DNA from: Phyllosticta citribraziliensis
Lineage: Eukaryota
Direction of reading: 5' to 3'
NCBI RefSeq assembly: GCF_038025025.1
Contig: NW_027117346.1
Location: 1,178,001 to 1,242,000, forward strand
DNA: 64,000 bases
The position numbers were made by a program, and so were the translations under genes. Numbering within the stretch: position 1 is the stretch's first letter; each line of letters begins with the position of its first letter. Below are positions 2,901 to 12,273 of this stretch, piece by piece. Under the pieces are notes generated by a model. The model was not told the origin of the DNA and did not search any database. It saw only the letters and a list, made by a program, of their open reading frames with translations.

Positions 2901-4171
2901 TTACAACTTACTCCCCGTCTTCCCCTTGACACCCGTAACCCTCACGACCGCCCGACCATTGCTCAACACGACCTTGCCGCCCTCGACCCTCGTGACAAAC
3001 CTGACCTCGTCCCAGCCCTGCGGCTCGCCCTCGGCGGGGCCCGTCCGCCAGAAGTCGCTGACGAGCGTGTCGCCCGGGCGCACGGGGCTGGCGAAGCGCG
3101 CCTGGAACGACTTGAGGTTGGCCGGGTCGGAGCCGCCAAACGACGCCAGCAGCCCGTGCGCCGTGGTGTTCCACGAGTACAGCCCGTGCATGATGGGCCC
3201 GCCGAAGCCCATGGCTTTGCCTGGCTCCGGCGTGGCGTGCAGAGGGTTGTAGTCGCCGTTGAGACTGCGGGCGTGGGGGGGTTAGTGTTTGGTCGGGAGG
3301 GGAAGGGGCGACATACCGGTATAAGTGGGCGGTCTCTGGACCGGTCTTTTGGACAAAGGTTGCGTCGGGCGAGCGGTCCGTGGGTGGCGGGTAGTTTACT
3401 GCCTTGGGACCTGTGCGTTGTGCGTAAGTAGAGGTCGTTGCTGCCTTCGTTTTGCAGGCGCGTCTCCCGGGCTGTGCCTCTCTCAACTCTCTCCTCCCCT
3501 GAGTTTTTTTTTTTTCTTTTTCCTTTGATGTTCCGTCCCATCACTCCAAATCCAGGGTTCCCATCCAACAAGAAATCAGGATAGTCAAAAACTCACCCTT
3601 CGGTCCTCCCCAACCCCCCTGGCCAACATAAAACCCGCTCCCAACAACCCGGCTATACACCTCCCCAGTGCTCTTCTCCACCAGCAGCGTCTCCGTCTCG
3701 ACCACGGTGCCCGGCTTGCCCTTGTCGTAGACGCCCAGCACCTTCTGGCGGATCTCAAAGGTGCGGCCGGCGCTGGTGACGGGCAGGGGCTTGAGGACCT
3801 CGATGCGGCGCTCGCCGTCGACGGTGCGCTTCGAGTCGAAGGCCGGCACGCCGGGGATCGGGGGCCCGCCGCCGGTACGCGCGTAAAAGTCGACGACTTC
3901 TTGGTCGGTGAGCTTGAAGGGCAGGATCAGGGGGTACGTCGGGAACGCGGCGAATTTGGGATGCAGTTCCTGCGGCGAAGCGCGTCAGCTACGTGATGTT
4001 GACTGCTTGGATGCTATATATGTATACGACTAGACTCACGTAGAGAAAGTGCAGCTCGTCGACCGTGCAGCCGATGCTGTTGGCGAAGAGCAGCAGGTCC
4101 CGCTTCAACCAGGCGACCTCGATGGGCGGGTATTCGAAGCCTACACCCGGACCTTGGTTTTGGTTGCTCAT
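2901..4171 (-). CDS. Peroxisomal MaoC-like dehydratase (enoyl-CoA hydratase 2); exons 4171..4040, 3969..3597, 3410..3317, 3264..2901
   Basis: Spliced frames join cleanly across three GT-AG introns. Hydratase-2 motif YRLNGDYNPLHATP...GFGGPIMHGL and FASPVRPGD. C-terminal PTS1 -SKL. Confidence 0.9.
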
Positions 4172-5916: not shown

Positions 5917-8659
5917 TCAGACCTCAAACCCAGCACCGTTGGAGTTGTTGAAGATGCTTTCATCTGTCTCTGGATGCCCGCCAGACTCGATGCCAGTCAT
6001 TCTATCGCCACGCGGCTGCTTCGGCGACTGTGTCCAAGGCTCCTGGACCTTTACGTCCTCGTCCATGGGATCCATATTACCAAAGTGCTCTTCCATGTGG
6101 CTGTCGTCGACGAAAGTGAAGCCCTTGAAGTTGGCTTGTACTGTGGGTGAGAGAGGCGTCGAAGCAGGGTTCATGCCCGCAGCAAGTGCGGCCGCACGGG
6201 CGTTGAGAGACGTTGCTTGGTTCAAAGCATTGGTGAATTCGGGATCAAAGTTGGACGTGTCCAGTTCAGACTTCAACTTGGGTTTGAAAGGCGGGACCAG
6301 GTTCTTCTTGGATAAGGCCTCCCAATCAATGTCGGCGAAAAAAGGATGGGCCTTGAGCTCCTCGGCGTCTCGATTCGCACCCAGCCTGTGCTTCGGGTTG
6401 CGGTTGAGCAGGCCTTTGACAAAGTTGCGGCCTTCGGTGCTGAGTGCATCGCGAGGGAAACGAACCTTGCCGAATGCGATGTTCTTGTACATTTGCTGCG
6501 TGTCTTCGGCATAGAAAGGGCTCCAGCCGCAGCACATCTCAAAGACCAATACACCGAGAGACCAAAAGTCGACCATCTTGGTGTATCCATGCTCGTCGAG
6601 AAGAACTTCGGGGGCAAGGTATTCCGTAGTGCCGCAAAATGTGTTGGTTGTGGAGTCCTCGGTCAGATTGGCCTTGGAGAGACCAAAGTCGCAGAGAGCA
6701 ATGTGGCCATTGGCGTCCAGGAGGATGTTTTCAGGCTTAAGGTCTCTGTAGACAATGTCGTGTTCGTGAAGGTGCTGCAGAGCGAGGATGAGTTCGGCAA
6801 TGTAAAACTTGGCGCGGGCCTCGTTGAAGCGTCCTTCCTTTTGCAAGTGCCAAAACAGCTCTCCTCCAGACATGTAATCAGTTACCAAATACAGGTCGGT
6901 TGGCGTTTGGAACGAGAATTTGAGCCCAACGATGAAAGGCGAGTCTGCCATGGCAGTCCGCACCAGGATGTTGCGCTCTCCCAGCGTGTGGGCAACCTCC
7001 TTCTTTTGCACAATGACCTTCTTCGAAAGCACCTTCATCGCGTAAATACGGCCCGTATCCTTCTTGCGCACCTGGAACACTTGGCCAAACGTGCCCTTGC
7101 CGATCAGCTTGAGTATCTGGAAATCTTCGGGTCCAAATTGCTTCTTCTCTGCCCGCTGGAATTTTAGACGCAGGCGAATCTCTCCCGTGACGAGATCTTG
7201 TTCGCCTTCTCTTGGCTCGAGGTGAAACCATGTGTCCAGGCCCTTTTCGTGTTCCACCAGAGCGGGGCAAAATCTGACGTGTCCCAGGAACGCCTCCTGG
7301 TTGGACTTGTCATACACCGAAACATCTATCTCGGCATGATCACCCACGACGTCACTTCGAGCGCGTCAGCCAAATGCATCGACAAGTTGAGCAAGTGACT
7401 TACAAGGTCGCCTCGTGGTCCCATTTGGGGTTTGTAGTTTCATCAAGTCTCTCCCGAGAATCGAATCCGTGGCTGGAGCTCTGCCGGCTCCGCATGGGAA
7501 TCGCCATGGGCCTTCCAGAGTCGCTGTCGGTGCGCATCATGGCCATGGATCCCCTTGGTGGTTCTTCCTCCTTCTTTGGTCCGGCGGAAATATCCTCTGC
7601 CCATTGGAACTGACACACAACATACGGATCCACGCTCGGCTTGAGCCCTCGGCCCTCGACGATGGAGACTACAAGCTTTCCCTTGAGCGCGGCGCAGTTG
7701 CCGGTTCCCGCGCCGTTGGAAGTGCTGCTACGCGTGGATTGCGAGGGGTTGGAGACGACGGGCGGCGGCTGCTTTGTTTCTTGAGATTGTGTCCTCGGAG
7801 TTTGCGGTGGCGTGTTCTGAGTACGAGCCGCGCTTTCAGTTAGCGTCCTGCTATCCTCGTGGTGTGCTGATGCCGAGGGGCGCCGCGAATCAGAAGGGGT
7901 AGCAACGGCAGGGCTAGACTGGGAGTTTGGCGTGGTTTTAGTTACTGGACTCGCAGGGTTCGCAATGTGTGCAGCGGAGACGGAAGGGTTCGTGATGGTG
8001 CTGGAGAGTGGGCTGGAGGGCGTGATGGTGTGCCGGCGAGCGGTGGGGACAGAAGTGCTCTCAACTTTACCGTTCGCGGAGCGCGAGCGGAGAGGTGCTG
8101 GTGTTGTTGTTGTTGTTGTTGTGGTGGTGGTGGGCCGATCTTGAGCGCTTCCTTCGTCCTTGCTCGCTCTGTGCAGGGAGGATGCAGATGAGATTGGAGG
8201 AGTTGGCAAAGAAAAGGATGGAGTGTCCTGAGGCGCCGCAGCGCGAGAAGCGGGGATGCCCATCTGCTCGTGCGGGAGCAGTGGTGGACTGTGCTCGCTG
8301 CTGCTGCCGCCAGACCTGCTGGGCGAGCTAGGAGCAGTCGGCAGAGCGTTGGCGCCTACCTTTTGTCCCGCACTCTGCAGCGCTCGGCCATCTCCATCCG
8401 CGTGTGCTGTGTTGGTGGTGCTTTGCATGGGTTGGGTGGAGGGCTCAGGGAGCGACGGTCTGGGACGGAAAACCAAAGGAATCGATGGGATGGAAGAACG
8501 AACCTGGCCAAAGTAGCTGAGTATGCCTGGCTGTCGCTTGTCTGTCGGGTCGGGGCGAGGTGTTGCGGCGCCCGGGGGCGTGGAGCTGTTGGAGCCGATG
8601 TGGTCGTGCTCGTCGTCGCCGACGCGGCTGGGAGCGGCAACGTGGTCAGCGGACGGCAT
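5917..8659 (-). CDS. SCH9: AGC-family Ser/Thr kinase Sch9/Sck1 (C2 + kinase + AGC C-tail); exons 8659..7404 and 7354..5917
   Basis: Kinase motifs GKGTFGQV, YRDLKPEN, DFGLSK, TFCGTTEYLAPE and hydrophobic motif FKGFTF. C2 domain (GKLVVSIVEGRGLKPSVDPYVVC). Intron 7403..7355 (GTAAGT...GCTGAC...AAG) joins ATF|DVVGD. Confidence 0.95.
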
Positions 8660-9016
8660 GGTTGGGTAGATGGAGGGGAGAGGAGTCGAGGAGAAGGAGA
8701 GGGGGGTGGTGGTGGTGGTTGAGGAGGGAGTTGAAGATGGGGAAGTGGAGTAGATGATGAAATGCGAGAGAAGGCTATTATTCTATTTCAAGAAAAATTG
8801 GGCGGATCGCAAAATCGAACCACTGGTCCCCTTGCTAAGCGAAGAGAAATGGCGTAGATCCATCCAAGCTAGGGCGGAGGGACTCAACGGCGGCGGCGGA
8901 CTCGATGCAGCCTCGAACTTTTGACCGCATGGCGGCGGCCAGAAGTGCGATGGTGCGGGCGAGCGACGACGGGGGAAGGCAGAGAGCGTGGGTGGGTGGG
9001 TGCGGTGGTGCCGCAA

Positions 9017-9051
9017 CGCAGCGCAGCGCAGCGCAGCGCAGGGCAGCGCAG
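9017..9051. repeat. (CGCAG)n pentanucleotide microsatellite
   Basis: cgcagcgcagcgcagcgcagcgcagggcagcgcag, seen directly. Confidence 0.85.
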
Positions 9052-9102
9052 GAGGAGCGTAGCGGTAGTAGCCGCGGGCAACAGAGGCGGCGCGCTTCAC
9101 AC

Positions 9103-9450
9103 TTACCTCTGACTGATGGCCTGTCGCAGCAGGTCGGTCGCTGAATGCGGGTTCAGGTCGTGGGATGTCGTCGTCATGTTCCTGGCGAGCCTCGGGCTGG
9201 GTTTTGAAAACGAGGACGGCGAGACGGACGACAGGGTCGGCAGAGCGCTGGCACTCTTGGAGGGCGAGGACAAGTCGGGTCGCAGGTTGGGACGGCGCGG
9301 CGGTTGTGATGGTGTTGATGAAAATTGTGGATGTGGTGGTGGAGGAGGATGAGTAGACGCAGACGGCGGACGAGGAATTACGGCGGGCGGAGGTTGGATG
9401 TTCTCGCGGGCATTTGTTGCGTTTGAATTCAGTATCGATGGCTTCGTCAT
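9103..9450 (-). CDS. Upstream ORF / candidate alternative first exon of SCH9 (115 aa if unspliced)
   Basis: ATG-initiated ORF (MTKPSILNSNATNARENIQ...SATDLLRQAISQR) whose stop codon lies inside a perfect donor, AG|GTAAGT, at 9106. Confidence 0.55.
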   Translation of the reverse strand: MTKPSILNSNATNARENIQPPPAVIPRPPSASTHPPPPPHPQFSSTPSQPPRRPNLRPDLSSPSKSASALPTLSSVSPSSFSKPSPRLARNMTTTSHDLNPHSATDLLRQAISQR

Positions 9451-10374
9451 TTTCGGACCTAGCTTGACCCGTCGGTCGCAGGGGGAGGACCGAACGGGAA
9501 GTTGATTGGGCCGGCCAAGGAGAGAGTGGGTCGTGGTCGAGGTGAAGGGGGCAACAGTAGACTCGAGAGAAGAGAGAGAGTATACCTAGAGAGAAAGCGC
9601 CCCACCCCGTTTCTTCACTTGACCGCTCGTTTGGAGGCCGACCAGGCCTTGCCCTTGGGCCAGCGAAAACAGCAGGGCGCCACCACCACCACCACTACTC
9701 CCACCACCCGGTGCGGCCCAAGCCGCTGACGGGGTCCTTTCAACACCGGAAGGGCATAATGTCAGGGCACACGATGAGGTGCATGAACTCTTCAGCTAAC
9801 TACTTGACAGATCCCAAAGGACGCCGTGTACAATGACGGTCGACATATGTAGTGTATCTATGCTGTGCTGCTCGCCTGATAGGAAACACAAGCTGAAGAG
9901 AAGACGACGGCCAAATGCCCAGCCTGCCAGCTCAGTCGCTCCACCGAGGCCAGGGATGACCTGTGCCATGTCTGTCTCGCCGTTTAAACAAGTGGCTGGT
10001 GGCGCGGCTGGAAATAGCTTCACGTCAGCCAGCAGAGATGGATGATTATTCTGTGAATCCAAAGGAAAGGAAATCAGCGTCAGGCGGCCAAGGACTGACC
10101 TGACTGACTGAGCAGAGGGTACGGCCGGAGAGGAGAGCCATGCTGCTTTGAAATGGATAACCTGCTTCCCGCAGGTCCTGGTCTGGTCTGCAAGCAGATA
10201 AGCAACCGCGCGCACCTCAGGCACGCACCGGACGGCAAAGAAACGGAAGCTTCACGTCCAGCAGAGCCAGGGCAAGGAACTATGACGCGATGACGGCAGG
10301 GTCTCTCGGTGCGCGGCGGTGCTGTGCTGGCGTCAGCGGCACTCGCCGGAGATGGCTGGGCTCCGATTCGTGCG

Positions 10375-10424
10375 AGATAAGATTAGATCAGTCCGAATCA
10401 GATTAGATCAGATAAGATAAGATG
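10375..10424. promoter_or_regulatory. Degenerate (AGATN)n pentamer array containing three GATAAG sites in the SCH9/RSC7 divergent promoter
   Basis: agataagattagatcag...cagattagatcagataagataagatg, seen directly. Confidence 0.45.
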
Positions 10425-10666: not shown

Positions 10667-12273
10667 ATGGCAGGTACTCCCACGCCTCTCGTCAACGACT
10701 CCGACCTCGACCTTGCAGACGCGCCCGAATCCGCACAAGACACGCCTCAGCCAACCGATGTCGACCCCGACGCCCCCACCCCGGCCCAGGAACCCGACGA
10801 TGACGACCATGTCGAACCAGACGTAGACCCAGACCCGTCCGAACGCTCCTCGCCCGTCGTCCAGCAATTCCCGCGCAAACGCCGCCTAGGACGCCCGCCC
10901 AAAAATCGCCCGCCCGACTGGGACAACGCCGATTCCAACAATGACAACGACTCGCAGAGAGGCACCCCGGCTAAGCGCCGTCGCGGTCGTCCTTCGACTG
11001 GCGGCTTCAGAGGCAGACCGCGCGGAGGCCCGTCGCACGTCACCCGCGTCCCCATTGACAAGGAAGGAAACATGATGGATGTGGTTGATGACGAGGTCGC
11101 CTTGCCTGAAGATCCCGAAGGCGAGCAAAAGGTGGACAAGATGGGCAACCTCAAGGGCGGCAGGGACTACAGGGTGCGCGTCTTCACCATCAGCGGCCGC
11201 GGCGACCGCCTGTACATGCTTTCCACCGAGCCCGCGAGATGCTGTGGCTTCAGGGACAGTTACCTCTTCTTCACCAAGCACATGCAACTCTACAAAATCA
11301 TCGTGACCGACGAGGAAAAGCGCGACCTGATAGACCGCGAAATCATCCCCCATTCCTACAAGGGTCGTGCCATTGGTGTCGTCACCGCCAGGTCCGTCTT
11401 TCGCGAGTTTGGCGCTCGAATCATCATTGCCGGCAAGAAGGTCATCGACGACTATTATGCTCAGGCAGCACGCGCCAGGGGTGATATCGAGGGCGAGCTT
11501 GCGGATCCCAACGACCGTCTGCCGCCACCTGGCGAACCCTACAACAAGAACCAATATGTTGCATGGCACGGTGCTAGCGCCGTCTACCACACTGGTGGTC
11601 CCAGCGTACCTCTCCAAAATGGCAAAGCTCACCAAGTCAAGCGGAGGATAAACATCACATCAGCAAATTGGCAGTTTGAACATGCCCGTTCTGCCAGGCA
11701 AGTATCTCGGTAGCCATGCCCGTGGTGCTCTCGCTAACTCTGTGCAGTCGCTTCAATAGCATCCTCGTGGAAGCTCGACGGCTGAACCTCGCTGGCGCCT
11801 ACGACCCCCACACGAATCAACTGCATTTTCCCAAGATCATGCAGCCGACACATGCCCGCTGGGAGCATCTACCGGCCGAGTCTGAAGAAATCGTTGAAGA
11901 GGACGTCTCCAAACAGACCAACGGGGTCAATGGTGTCAACGGCACGGCTCACAAGCAGAAACATGTCGACTCGACCTTTGGCAAGGTTCCTACTGTAGTG
12001 TCCCGCAATTTCTTGGTCATCGACACCCACTTCCAATCTGCGCCCATGACTGGCTTGGGAGTGCCTGGGCCGGACGGCGACTTTCGTGATGTTGGCGTCA
12101 ACGGCTTGCCAAATCCATCTGAAGAGATCCTAGAAGATTTGCCAGAAGAGTGCCGCAAGGCACTGCAAGAGGCCAAGGAGAAGGAGCGCGAGTGGAAAAG
12201 AAGTTGGGGCTCGGAAGCCGTCGACGGTTGCAGGAACCAGCTCAAAATTGGGTTCCTAGGCGTGCCCGTTTGA
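10667..12273 (+). CDS. RSC7: Chromatin structure-remodelling complex subunit Rsc7/Npl6; exons 10667..11697 and 11748..12273 (GC-AG intron)
   Basis: AT-hook-like RRLGRPPKN and RRRGRP motifs. CRC-subunit domain GEQKVDKMGNLKGGRDY..RVFTI..RGDRLYMLSTEPARCCGFRDSYLFF and VTARSVFREFGARII. The exons join in frame only through the GCAAGT donor at 11698. Confidence 0.9.

Follow-up and report, generated by a model that had tools for sequence, protein, structure and literature searches.

The stretch of DNA analysed here comprises 64,000 nucleotides (nt) of the fungus Phyllosticta citribraziliensis (contig NW_027117346.1, positions 1,178,001 to 1,242,000; this whole stretch is hereafter the window) and carries, on its minus strand, an orthologue of the kinase gene SCH9. 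At 9450..9103, upstream of the part recognised as kinase by ORF callers, lies an open reading frame (ORF) of 115 codons, whose frame from ATG to TAA was verified on the minus strand. RNA contigs and comparison with orthologues indicate that this ORF is very probably the first coding exon of SCH9, spliced from 9107 to 8627, and that a 585-nt segment farther downstream is optional, giving kinases of 806 and 1001 amino acids (aa). The parts of the gene and the splice joints are listed in Table 1.

The identity of the gene was assessed from its domains and its relatives. Exon 4 matches the Pfam families PF00069 (Pkinase, 2.9e-70) and PF00433 (Pkinase_C, 2.1e-15), and contains FKGFTF, which we take to be hydrophobic-motif-like. 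The C2 domain (PF00168), present in a 96%-identical model from Phyllosticta citrichinensis (P0001) and in nearly all listed orthologues, gave no match when two pieces of the gene were searched separately, because intron 3 splits the domain. Relatives are named SCH9 (Lasiodiplodia, Pyrenophora, Alternaria and Exophiala), SCHA (Curvularia) or sck1 (Cladophialophora), and for the 419-aa N-terminal ORF three Phyllosticta models match best (identities of 96, 93 and 85%), ahead of further Botryosphaeriales and Dothideomycetes whose proteins bear the name SCH9 or SCHA. Judged from these matches, the gene is an SCH9/S6K-like AGC kinase orthologue, for which orthology would predict phosphorylation by target of rapamycin complex 1 (TORC1) and a role as its downstream effector. 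One relative from Venturia nashicola (P0023), with kinase, AGC-tail and C2 matches, aligns with the SCH9 N-terminal ORF over 98%, and its source calls it 'ATP-dependent RNA helicase dbp2', an apparent naming error.

Table 1. Parts of SCH9 and splice joints in RNA contigs, in window coordinates
Feature	Position	Strand	Length	Details
Minimal 5' leader	9451..9561	minus		no ATG; X2 contig 13 spans 9107-9561, then adaptor letters
Exon 1, coding part	9450-9107	minus	344 nt	phase 2; MTKPS…KSASALPTLS…NPHSATDLLRQAISQ; joint 8627/9107
Intron 1	9106-8628	minus	479 nt	GTAAGT donor; CTGAC branch site 8649-8645; AG 8629-8628
Intronic ATG	8659-8657	minus		in the frame of exon 2; followed after 6 nt by GCTGAC (branch-site hexamer)
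Exon 2	8627-8504	minus	124 nt	(S)RVGDDEHDHIGSNSSTPPGAATPRPDPTDKRQPGILSYFGQ; X1 contig 5 (exactly 8504-8629), X16 contig 8, X6 contig 15
Optional exitron-like segment	8503-7919	minus	585 nt	stop-free over 195 codons; ends GTTCGT…CAG
Exon 3	7918-7404	minus	515 nt	S/T/P-rich linker and first half of the C2 domain
Intron 3	7403-7355	minus	49 nt	GTAAGT…GCTGAC…AAG; 4/4 runs
Exon 4	7354-5917	minus	1438 nt	remaining C2, protein kinase domain, AGC C-terminal tail (…FKGFTF…), stop codon
Joint, intron 3	7354/7404	minus	skips 49 nt	4/4 runs
Joint, intron 1	8627/9107	minus	skips 479 nt	4/4 runs; flanked on each side by 124-255 letters (X2, X6, X16); 28 letters in X1
Joint, optional segment	7918/8504	minus	skips 585 nt	X6 and X16 (124 letters each side), X1 (30 letters); absent from X2

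The RNA evidence consists of assembled contigs from four runs (X1, X2, X6 and X16) placed on the window. X1 and X2 come from the organism of the window, with no differing letters in the long listed pieces. The three reported joints all have minus-strand GT..AG borders. Contig 13 of X2 matches the window letter for letter and joins 8627 to 9107 with 255 letters on either side, and X16 contig 8 (3322 nt), from a relative that is ~94% identical, carries the three joins together in one molecule. Because exon 1 is 344 nt long in phase 2 and 8627 is a codon position 3, exon 1 joins exon 2 in frame. The fusion reads …DLLRQAISQ-S-RVGDDEHDHIGS…, and the junction peptides expected from the spliced model are …AISQSRVGDDEH… and …SYFGQSSPAVATPSD…. 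The spliced coding sequence measures 2421 nt (806 aa) or 3006 nt (1001 aa), each with one terminal stop; the ORF-caller model has 897 aa. Exon 1 displaces only 11 residues, MPSADHVAAPS, which ORF callers read from the 3' end of intron 1. Given the extent of that intron, ATG 8659, from which the ORF callers and the public Phyllosticta annotations begin, is therefore intronic, 32 nt inside its 3' end.

A preliminary description, made from the letters of the window, had taken the ORF for an alternative first exon of SCH9. Its sequence observation is confirmed and its interpretation is partly supported. The donor context CAGAG/GTAAGT, with its G at 9106, and the 344-nt, phase-2 exon from the ATG to 9107 are as described; the ORF is coding, its terminal GTAAGT donor is in use and it is fused in frame to the kinase, but the acceptor is not the one proposed, and the AG at 8629-8628 that is really used had gone unnoticed. 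The ORF stops inside its donor because any phase-2 exon followed by a GTRAGT donor reads xxG TAA or xxG TGA, and exon 1 of a metagenome locus, L001, likewise stops inside its donor (AA/GTGAGT). The suggestion that the ORF, if unspliced, would act as a free microprotein or repressive upstream open reading frame (uORF) does not apply to spliced RNA, from which the stop TAA at 9105-9103 leaves with intron 1; uORF status is conceivable only for RNA retaining intron 1, such as X1 contig 6. As 9107 joins 8627, no N-terminus is swapped: 115 residues are put before …RVGDDEHDH….

Conservation of the peptide, which the preliminary description had named as a check on its reading, was found, as exon-1 motifs recur in SCH9 orthologues of other Dothideomycetes. 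An alignment of 18 orthologue models shows KS(A/S)SAxPTLS and NPHxAxDLLRQA(M/I), plus a common MT… start, and identifies exon 2 as the best-conserved part of the N-terminal region. The SCH9/SchA proteins of Curvularia lunata (P0057), Lasiodiplodia hormozganensis (P0004) and Friedmanniomyces (P0094) have KSSSxVPTLS and AADLLRQAM directly before the DDxHDxIGS block, with the same junction; they are single models with no stated isoforms, and their exon 1 is not alignable outside the two motifs. Among 120 orthologue models, 52 carry [DE]LL[RK][RQ] upstream of the DDEHDxIGS block, 23 begin with M-x-x-A-[ND], which corresponds to an ATG, 6 nt and a GCTRAC branch site, 44 have other forms (many of them also intronic read-throughs) and 1 lacks the anchor motif. 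In a composition-corrected search with SEG filtering, 9 out of 122 proteins match exon-1 residues 92-114 at E<=0.01.

A metagenome scan with a 50-residue exon-2 peptide retrieved two loci, L001 and L002. L001, which is genomic, repeats the layout of the window: an exon 1 reading MTAPT…KSASSIPAV…DLLRQAMTGMQ, a phase-2 AA/GTGAGT donor, an intron of ~460 nt and then exon 2, with the acceptor preceded by ATG-CCAGCT-GCTAAC and the conserved C2-domain intron farther downstream. In the ~94%-identical relative, the indels of exon 1 (-4, -1 and -1 within 13 nt, a sum of 6 nt) keep the frame, whereas those of intron 1 (+4, +1, +1 and -8) do not amount to a multiple of 3.

Within Phyllosticta, the models from P. 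citrichinensis (P0001, 898 aa), P. paracitricarpa (P0002, 741 aa, partial) and P. capitalensis (P0003, 738 aa) represent the same gene, with 85-96% identity over the 419-aa ORF. Exon 1 is missing from all three, whose first codon is the intronic ATG (MPSAD…), except that the partial P0002 has three residues before that M. Elsewhere, the Diplodia seriata models P0007 and P0008 read through the equivalent of intron 1 as 22 in-frame codons (…MQ-SALAARMPLLAMRFANRLVASS-RVGDD…), and Lasiodiplodia P0004 splices it. In the Diplodia/Lasiodiplodia lineage, intron 1 is apparently only ~66 nt long and in frame, again with M-x-x-A-N.

Several points weigh against the spliced gene model. The RNA data are contigs and not raw reads, from which abundances, transcript ends and rare forms are not readable. 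X1 and X2, whose library type is only guessed in the record, were taken as RNA because they contain spliced contigs; X6 and X16, which are declared RNA-Seq libraries of one plant-metagenome study, represent the related species. At both key joints the short sides in X1, of 28 and 30 letters, fall just below our 31-letter rule, and removal of the 585-nt segment in the species of the window rests on an X1 contig and a graph break at 8504. An X1 contig that is unspliced across the intron-1 acceptor has a depth of 668 against 979 for the spliced one, so that RNA containing intron 1 is not negligible in X1, although these depths are contig means and were not used as isoform ratios. The open frame of exon 1 is weak by itself, as 111 out of 2000 mononucleotide shuffles were also stop-free. 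Pfam searches found no families in exon 1, nor in the 419-aa ORF, and the exon-1 peptide matched nothing at E<=0.01 among longer proteins (901 candidates). An exhaustive HMMER search of representatives gave two matches (P0121 and P0122), neither an annotated kinase; P0122, a 172-aa unnamed ORF on a 1.2-kb contig, was the sole match in the near-length search. Finally, the most likely start, ATG 9450, is a prediction made from the extent of the mRNA and the context of the ATG.

Detection in whole databases fails because the exon-1 peptide is too low in complexity, and its conservation is visible only in local alignment against SCH9 orthologues. The other HMMER match, P0121, is a repetitive protein of 2759 aa matched in 25 stretches, and was judged an artefact of composition. 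GC content by codon position separates neither exon 1 nor the 585-nt segment from intron 1.

A second N-terminal isoform is conceivable from the 3' part of intron 1: RNA that retains this intron, or that starts from an intronic promoter, would be translated from ATG 8659 (MPSADHVAAPS-RVGDD…) without the exon-1 peptide. With intron retention, exon 1 could then be a uORF stopping at the TAA in the donor. We consider such an isoform possible but rather doubtful. In the three DNA loci compared (the window, L001 and L002), exactly 6 nt separate the in-frame ATG from the branch hexamer downstream; L001 and L002, found solely via exon-2 similarity, share the layout ATG-6nt-[GA]CTAAC. The models that begin with M-x-x-A-[ND] are joined by more with a T-[ND] version, and a long pyrimidine-rich tract of ~120 nt (~8780-8662) precedes the ATG. 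X1 contig 6 (1088 nt) aligns over 374 nt, 8600-8973, unspliced across the intron-1 acceptor and up to a masked repeat, and X16 also has an unspliced contig over the acceptor, at a depth of 3.5. The positional conservation of the ATG and the X1 contig together are what make a second start possible.

Against this, CTGAC, a branch site 18 nt upstream, and a pyrimidine run precede the AG at 8629-8628, and MPSADHVAAPS is what these two elements and the CAG yield on translation; more generally, the 'conserved peptide' downstream of the ATG mostly comes from reading a branch site, a pyrimidine tract and a YAG as codons. The models that begin there were selected for having an ATG. X2 and X6 have no cover in 8683-8996, which we do not take as proof of absence. 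The X1 contig reaches at least 8973, past two further ATGs (8930 and 8863) that precede 8659, and therefore resembles a retained intron or pre-mRNA more than the product of a nearby start site. The repeat that bounds the aligned part of this contig (8974-9055, inside intron 1) is a masked GC-rich short tandem repeat of GCGCT/GCTGC units, likely of strain-variable length.

For RNA in which exon 1 is spliced to exon 2, the position of the start codon has to be considered. X2 contig 13 reaches 9561, so the mRNA includes ATG 9450; there is no ATG between 9561 and 9450, and ATG 9450, with an A at -3, is the first ATG past an in-frame stop located 46 codons upstream. An alternative would accept exon 1 but place the start at an internal ATG, 9177-9175 (MTTTSHDLNPHSATDLLRQAISQ…), so that only ~24 residues of exon 1 would be made. 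This agrees with 6 of the 18 aligned orthologue models (P0004, P0007, P0090, P0106, P0115 and P0063), which begin at a Met matching 9177, among them annotated models of Lasiodiplodia, Diplodia and a lichen fungus, and with the composition-corrected BLAST search, in which only the last ~23 residues of exon 1 score. It is nevertheless unlikely, given an mRNA that extends to at least 9561 and the favourable position of ATG 9450. Moreover, KSASAxPTLS and the MT… start, both upstream of the internal Met, are common to Pleosporales, Friedmanniomyces, L001 and P0122, and the indels of the relative that preserve the frame lie in 9321-9333. We thus favour translation of all of exon 1 from ATG 9450.

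The 5' end of the transcript may lie farther upstream. Colinearity of X1 contig 7 extends from 9107 to 10378, well past the end of the X2 contig at 9561. The interval 9562-10378 (minus strand) could be a long 5' leader with five ATGs (10141, 9969, 9846, 9784 and 9757) or reflect separate transcription from upstream or from a bidirectional promoter. A divergently oriented neighbour, encoded ~1.1 kb upstream of SCH9 at 10667-11713 on the plus strand, is a chromatin-remodelling Rsc7/Swp82 subunit (PF08624, E 3.4e-57); the next ORF, 11716-12273 (185 aa), has no Pfam match and may be a further exon of it.

The second feature of the gene is the 585-nt segment between exons 2 and 3. Its length equals 3 x 195, and it contains no in-frame stop, with 2 and 5 stops in the other two frames; only 5 out of 2000 shuffles of the segment were stop-free. 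It is removed in X6, X16 and X1, and kept alongside in X1 (contig 4, 7896-8533) and X6 (contig 16). In X2, contig 12 lacks intron 3 but continues past 7918 to 8032, and contig 13 lacks intron 1 but starts within the segment, at 8359. RNA that is otherwise spliced therefore keeps the segment. Only the kept form is seen in X2, while X1, X6 and X16 show mainly the removed form; this difference between runs is a hint of regulation, which contig depths cannot quantify. The preliminary description had expected several N-terminal variants from one locus, and such variation exists through alternative splicing of this segment, not through the splice that it proposed.

The segment encodes motifs common to fungal classes (LPTAPSSP, PPLLPHE, YPTPP.SSASS and RRHT). 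Under strict filters, only 7 out of 122 proteins match the 195-aa piece alone, and orthologues cover 97-100% of the 419-aa ORF. The donor is the GT of a Val codon that follows a conserved YFGQ. After YFGQ, 94 out of 120 models go on with V (VR in 67, VG in 20 and VC in 7), and others skip from the same point, 15 directly to ATPPQTPRT and 1 to NQATPPQTPRT. The stretch after YFGQ is likewise present in one and absent from the other when the first 230 residues of P0083 (798 aa, 3.6-kb contig) and of the C. lunata SCHA (P0057, 875 aa) are compared. P0002 and P0003 remove a shorter, different internal piece (…VRSSIP/PLSSI…) than the one seen in RNA; no GT was found in the window at the donor position of these two models, and their intron may be a prediction artefact or a species difference. 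Within the segment, a masked run of Thr codons (ACA/ACC) at 8089-8139 is likely of strain-variable length.

The segment fits exitron-type alternative splicing, as it has canonical ends, occurs in both forms in RNA and is protein-coding. Exitrons, known chiefly from plants and humans, are protein-coding stretches inside exons that undergo alternative splicing. The segment resembles them in its GT..AG ends, its open frame and a length divisible by 3, in the homologous coding sequence of orthologues and in the presence of both forms in RNA; it differs in belonging to a filamentous fungus and to a kinase of the TORC1 pathway. No fungal exitron was found among the literature matches listed for exitrons and fungi. 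Alternatively, the segment could be a constitutive intron, with the kept contigs as traces of pre-mRNA or DNA, or a plain exon, with the joined form arising falsely in assembly. Unspliced intron 1 in X1 suggests that this run may be rich in pre-mRNA, and the kept segment has a depth there of only 442, as against ~3400-3900 in the exons next to it. A constitutive intron does not, however, account for X2 contigs 12 and 13, which keep the segment though spliced at other introns, nor for its open frame and cross-class motifs; an assembly artefact would hardly produce exact GT..AG ends and the joined form in three runs from two studies. We regard both versions as quite improbable and retain the optional segment.

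The splice proposed in the preliminary description, from the donor at 9106 to an AAG at 7835-7833, would replace ~275 N-terminal residues (…AISQ-S-AARTQNTPP…). Its elements are present: GCTAAC at 7844-7839 followed by the AAG, base 7832 as codon position 3 in the kinase frame, a CTAAC that occurs only once in 8659-7404, and an open product when 9107 is joined to 7832, or to 8774 past a second acceptor option, TAG 8777-8775. The Pleosporales short form also resumes only a few residues further on, at (NQ)ATPPQTPRT. The AAG acceptor at 7357-7355, which the description had also cited, is real, as the joint 7354/7404 shows. Even so, this model is extremely improbable, since no contig in the four runs joins 9107 to 7832, or to 8774, against 9107/8627 in all four; all contigs are colinear across 7832-7844, the interval from 9106 to 7404 holds 36 in-phase, stop-free AG dinucleotides, of which that of the AAG is just one, and the branch A at 7840 lies 7 nt from the proposed AG, compared to 11, 18 and ~19-23 nt in the three RNA-confirmed introns of the gene. 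Contigs drop rare variants, and a trace 9107/7832 isoform could escape them. The GCTAAC and the AAG are ordinary coding sequence within exon 3.

Taken together, transcription of SCH9 would start at or upstream of 9561, with translation most likely from ATG 9450. Spliceosomal removal of intron 1 would fuse exon 1 in frame to …RVGDDEHDHIGS…, the 585-nt segment would be spliced out of some transcripts and retained in others, and intron 3 would always be removed. The predicted products, of 806 aa with the segment out and 1001 aa with the segment in, would share the exon-1 N-terminus, the C2 domain and the kinase domain.

The variable parts of the protein can be placed by comparison with yeast. Sch9 of Saccharomyces cerevisiae and the SCH9 of the window share their architecture, in which a long low-complexity N-terminal region precedes the C2 domain (predicted in the window from its orthologues), the kinase domain and the AGC tail. 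The yeast SCH9 gene is intronless and has a single N-terminus, whereas the N-terminal region in the window is built from three or four exons, with 195 residues optional. A preprint on yeast Sch9 reports that its N-terminal domain (aa 1-182), and not C2, is needed for vacuolar localisation and TORC1-dependent phosphorylation (bioRxiv 10.1101/2021.07.09.451810). By this analogy, exon 1 and the optional 195 residues would fall in the region that sets membrane targeting and regulation, and any functional difference between the two forms might be sought there.

A broader reading, which we put forward tentatively and think probably goes too far, is that SCH9 of Dothideomycetes encodes multiple isoforms through two N-terminal modules that vary independently: alternative starts (exon 1a, or an 'exon 1b') and an exitron after YFGQ/GT. 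If so, exon 1a would carry KSASAxPTLS and DLLRQA, the conserved ATG of 'exon 1b', placed 6 nt before the intron-1 branch site, would be used from an intronic promoter or through intron retention, and the exitron would remove 77-195 linker residues. Up to four kinase forms would result; their membrane targeting or their access to TORC1 could differ, and growth condition may determine the choice among them, in line with the difference between X2 and the other three runs.

Overall, the analysis yields a gene-model correction and one in-frame alternative splicing event, which is of modest interest. Neither a missed first exon nor an in-frame alternative intron is a new kind of phenomenon, and the finding is more useful than surprising. 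Among the papers listed, we found none on alternative splicing or a first exon of SCH9 in filamentous fungi, including Phyllosticta and Dothideomycetes, in a search that left subscription journals outside its scope. What is corrected is the model of a kinase central to growth control, in a genus of fungi associated with plants: the three public Phyllosticta models recovered start inside intron 1 and miss 115 N-terminal residues, and among the 120 orthologue models examined the annotations differ in where the protein starts and also in the internal segment. By analogy with the yeast finding, the optional 195-residue piece may offer a filamentous fungus a testable route to tune TORC1 output by splicing, and the possible second start would add to such N-terminal tuning.

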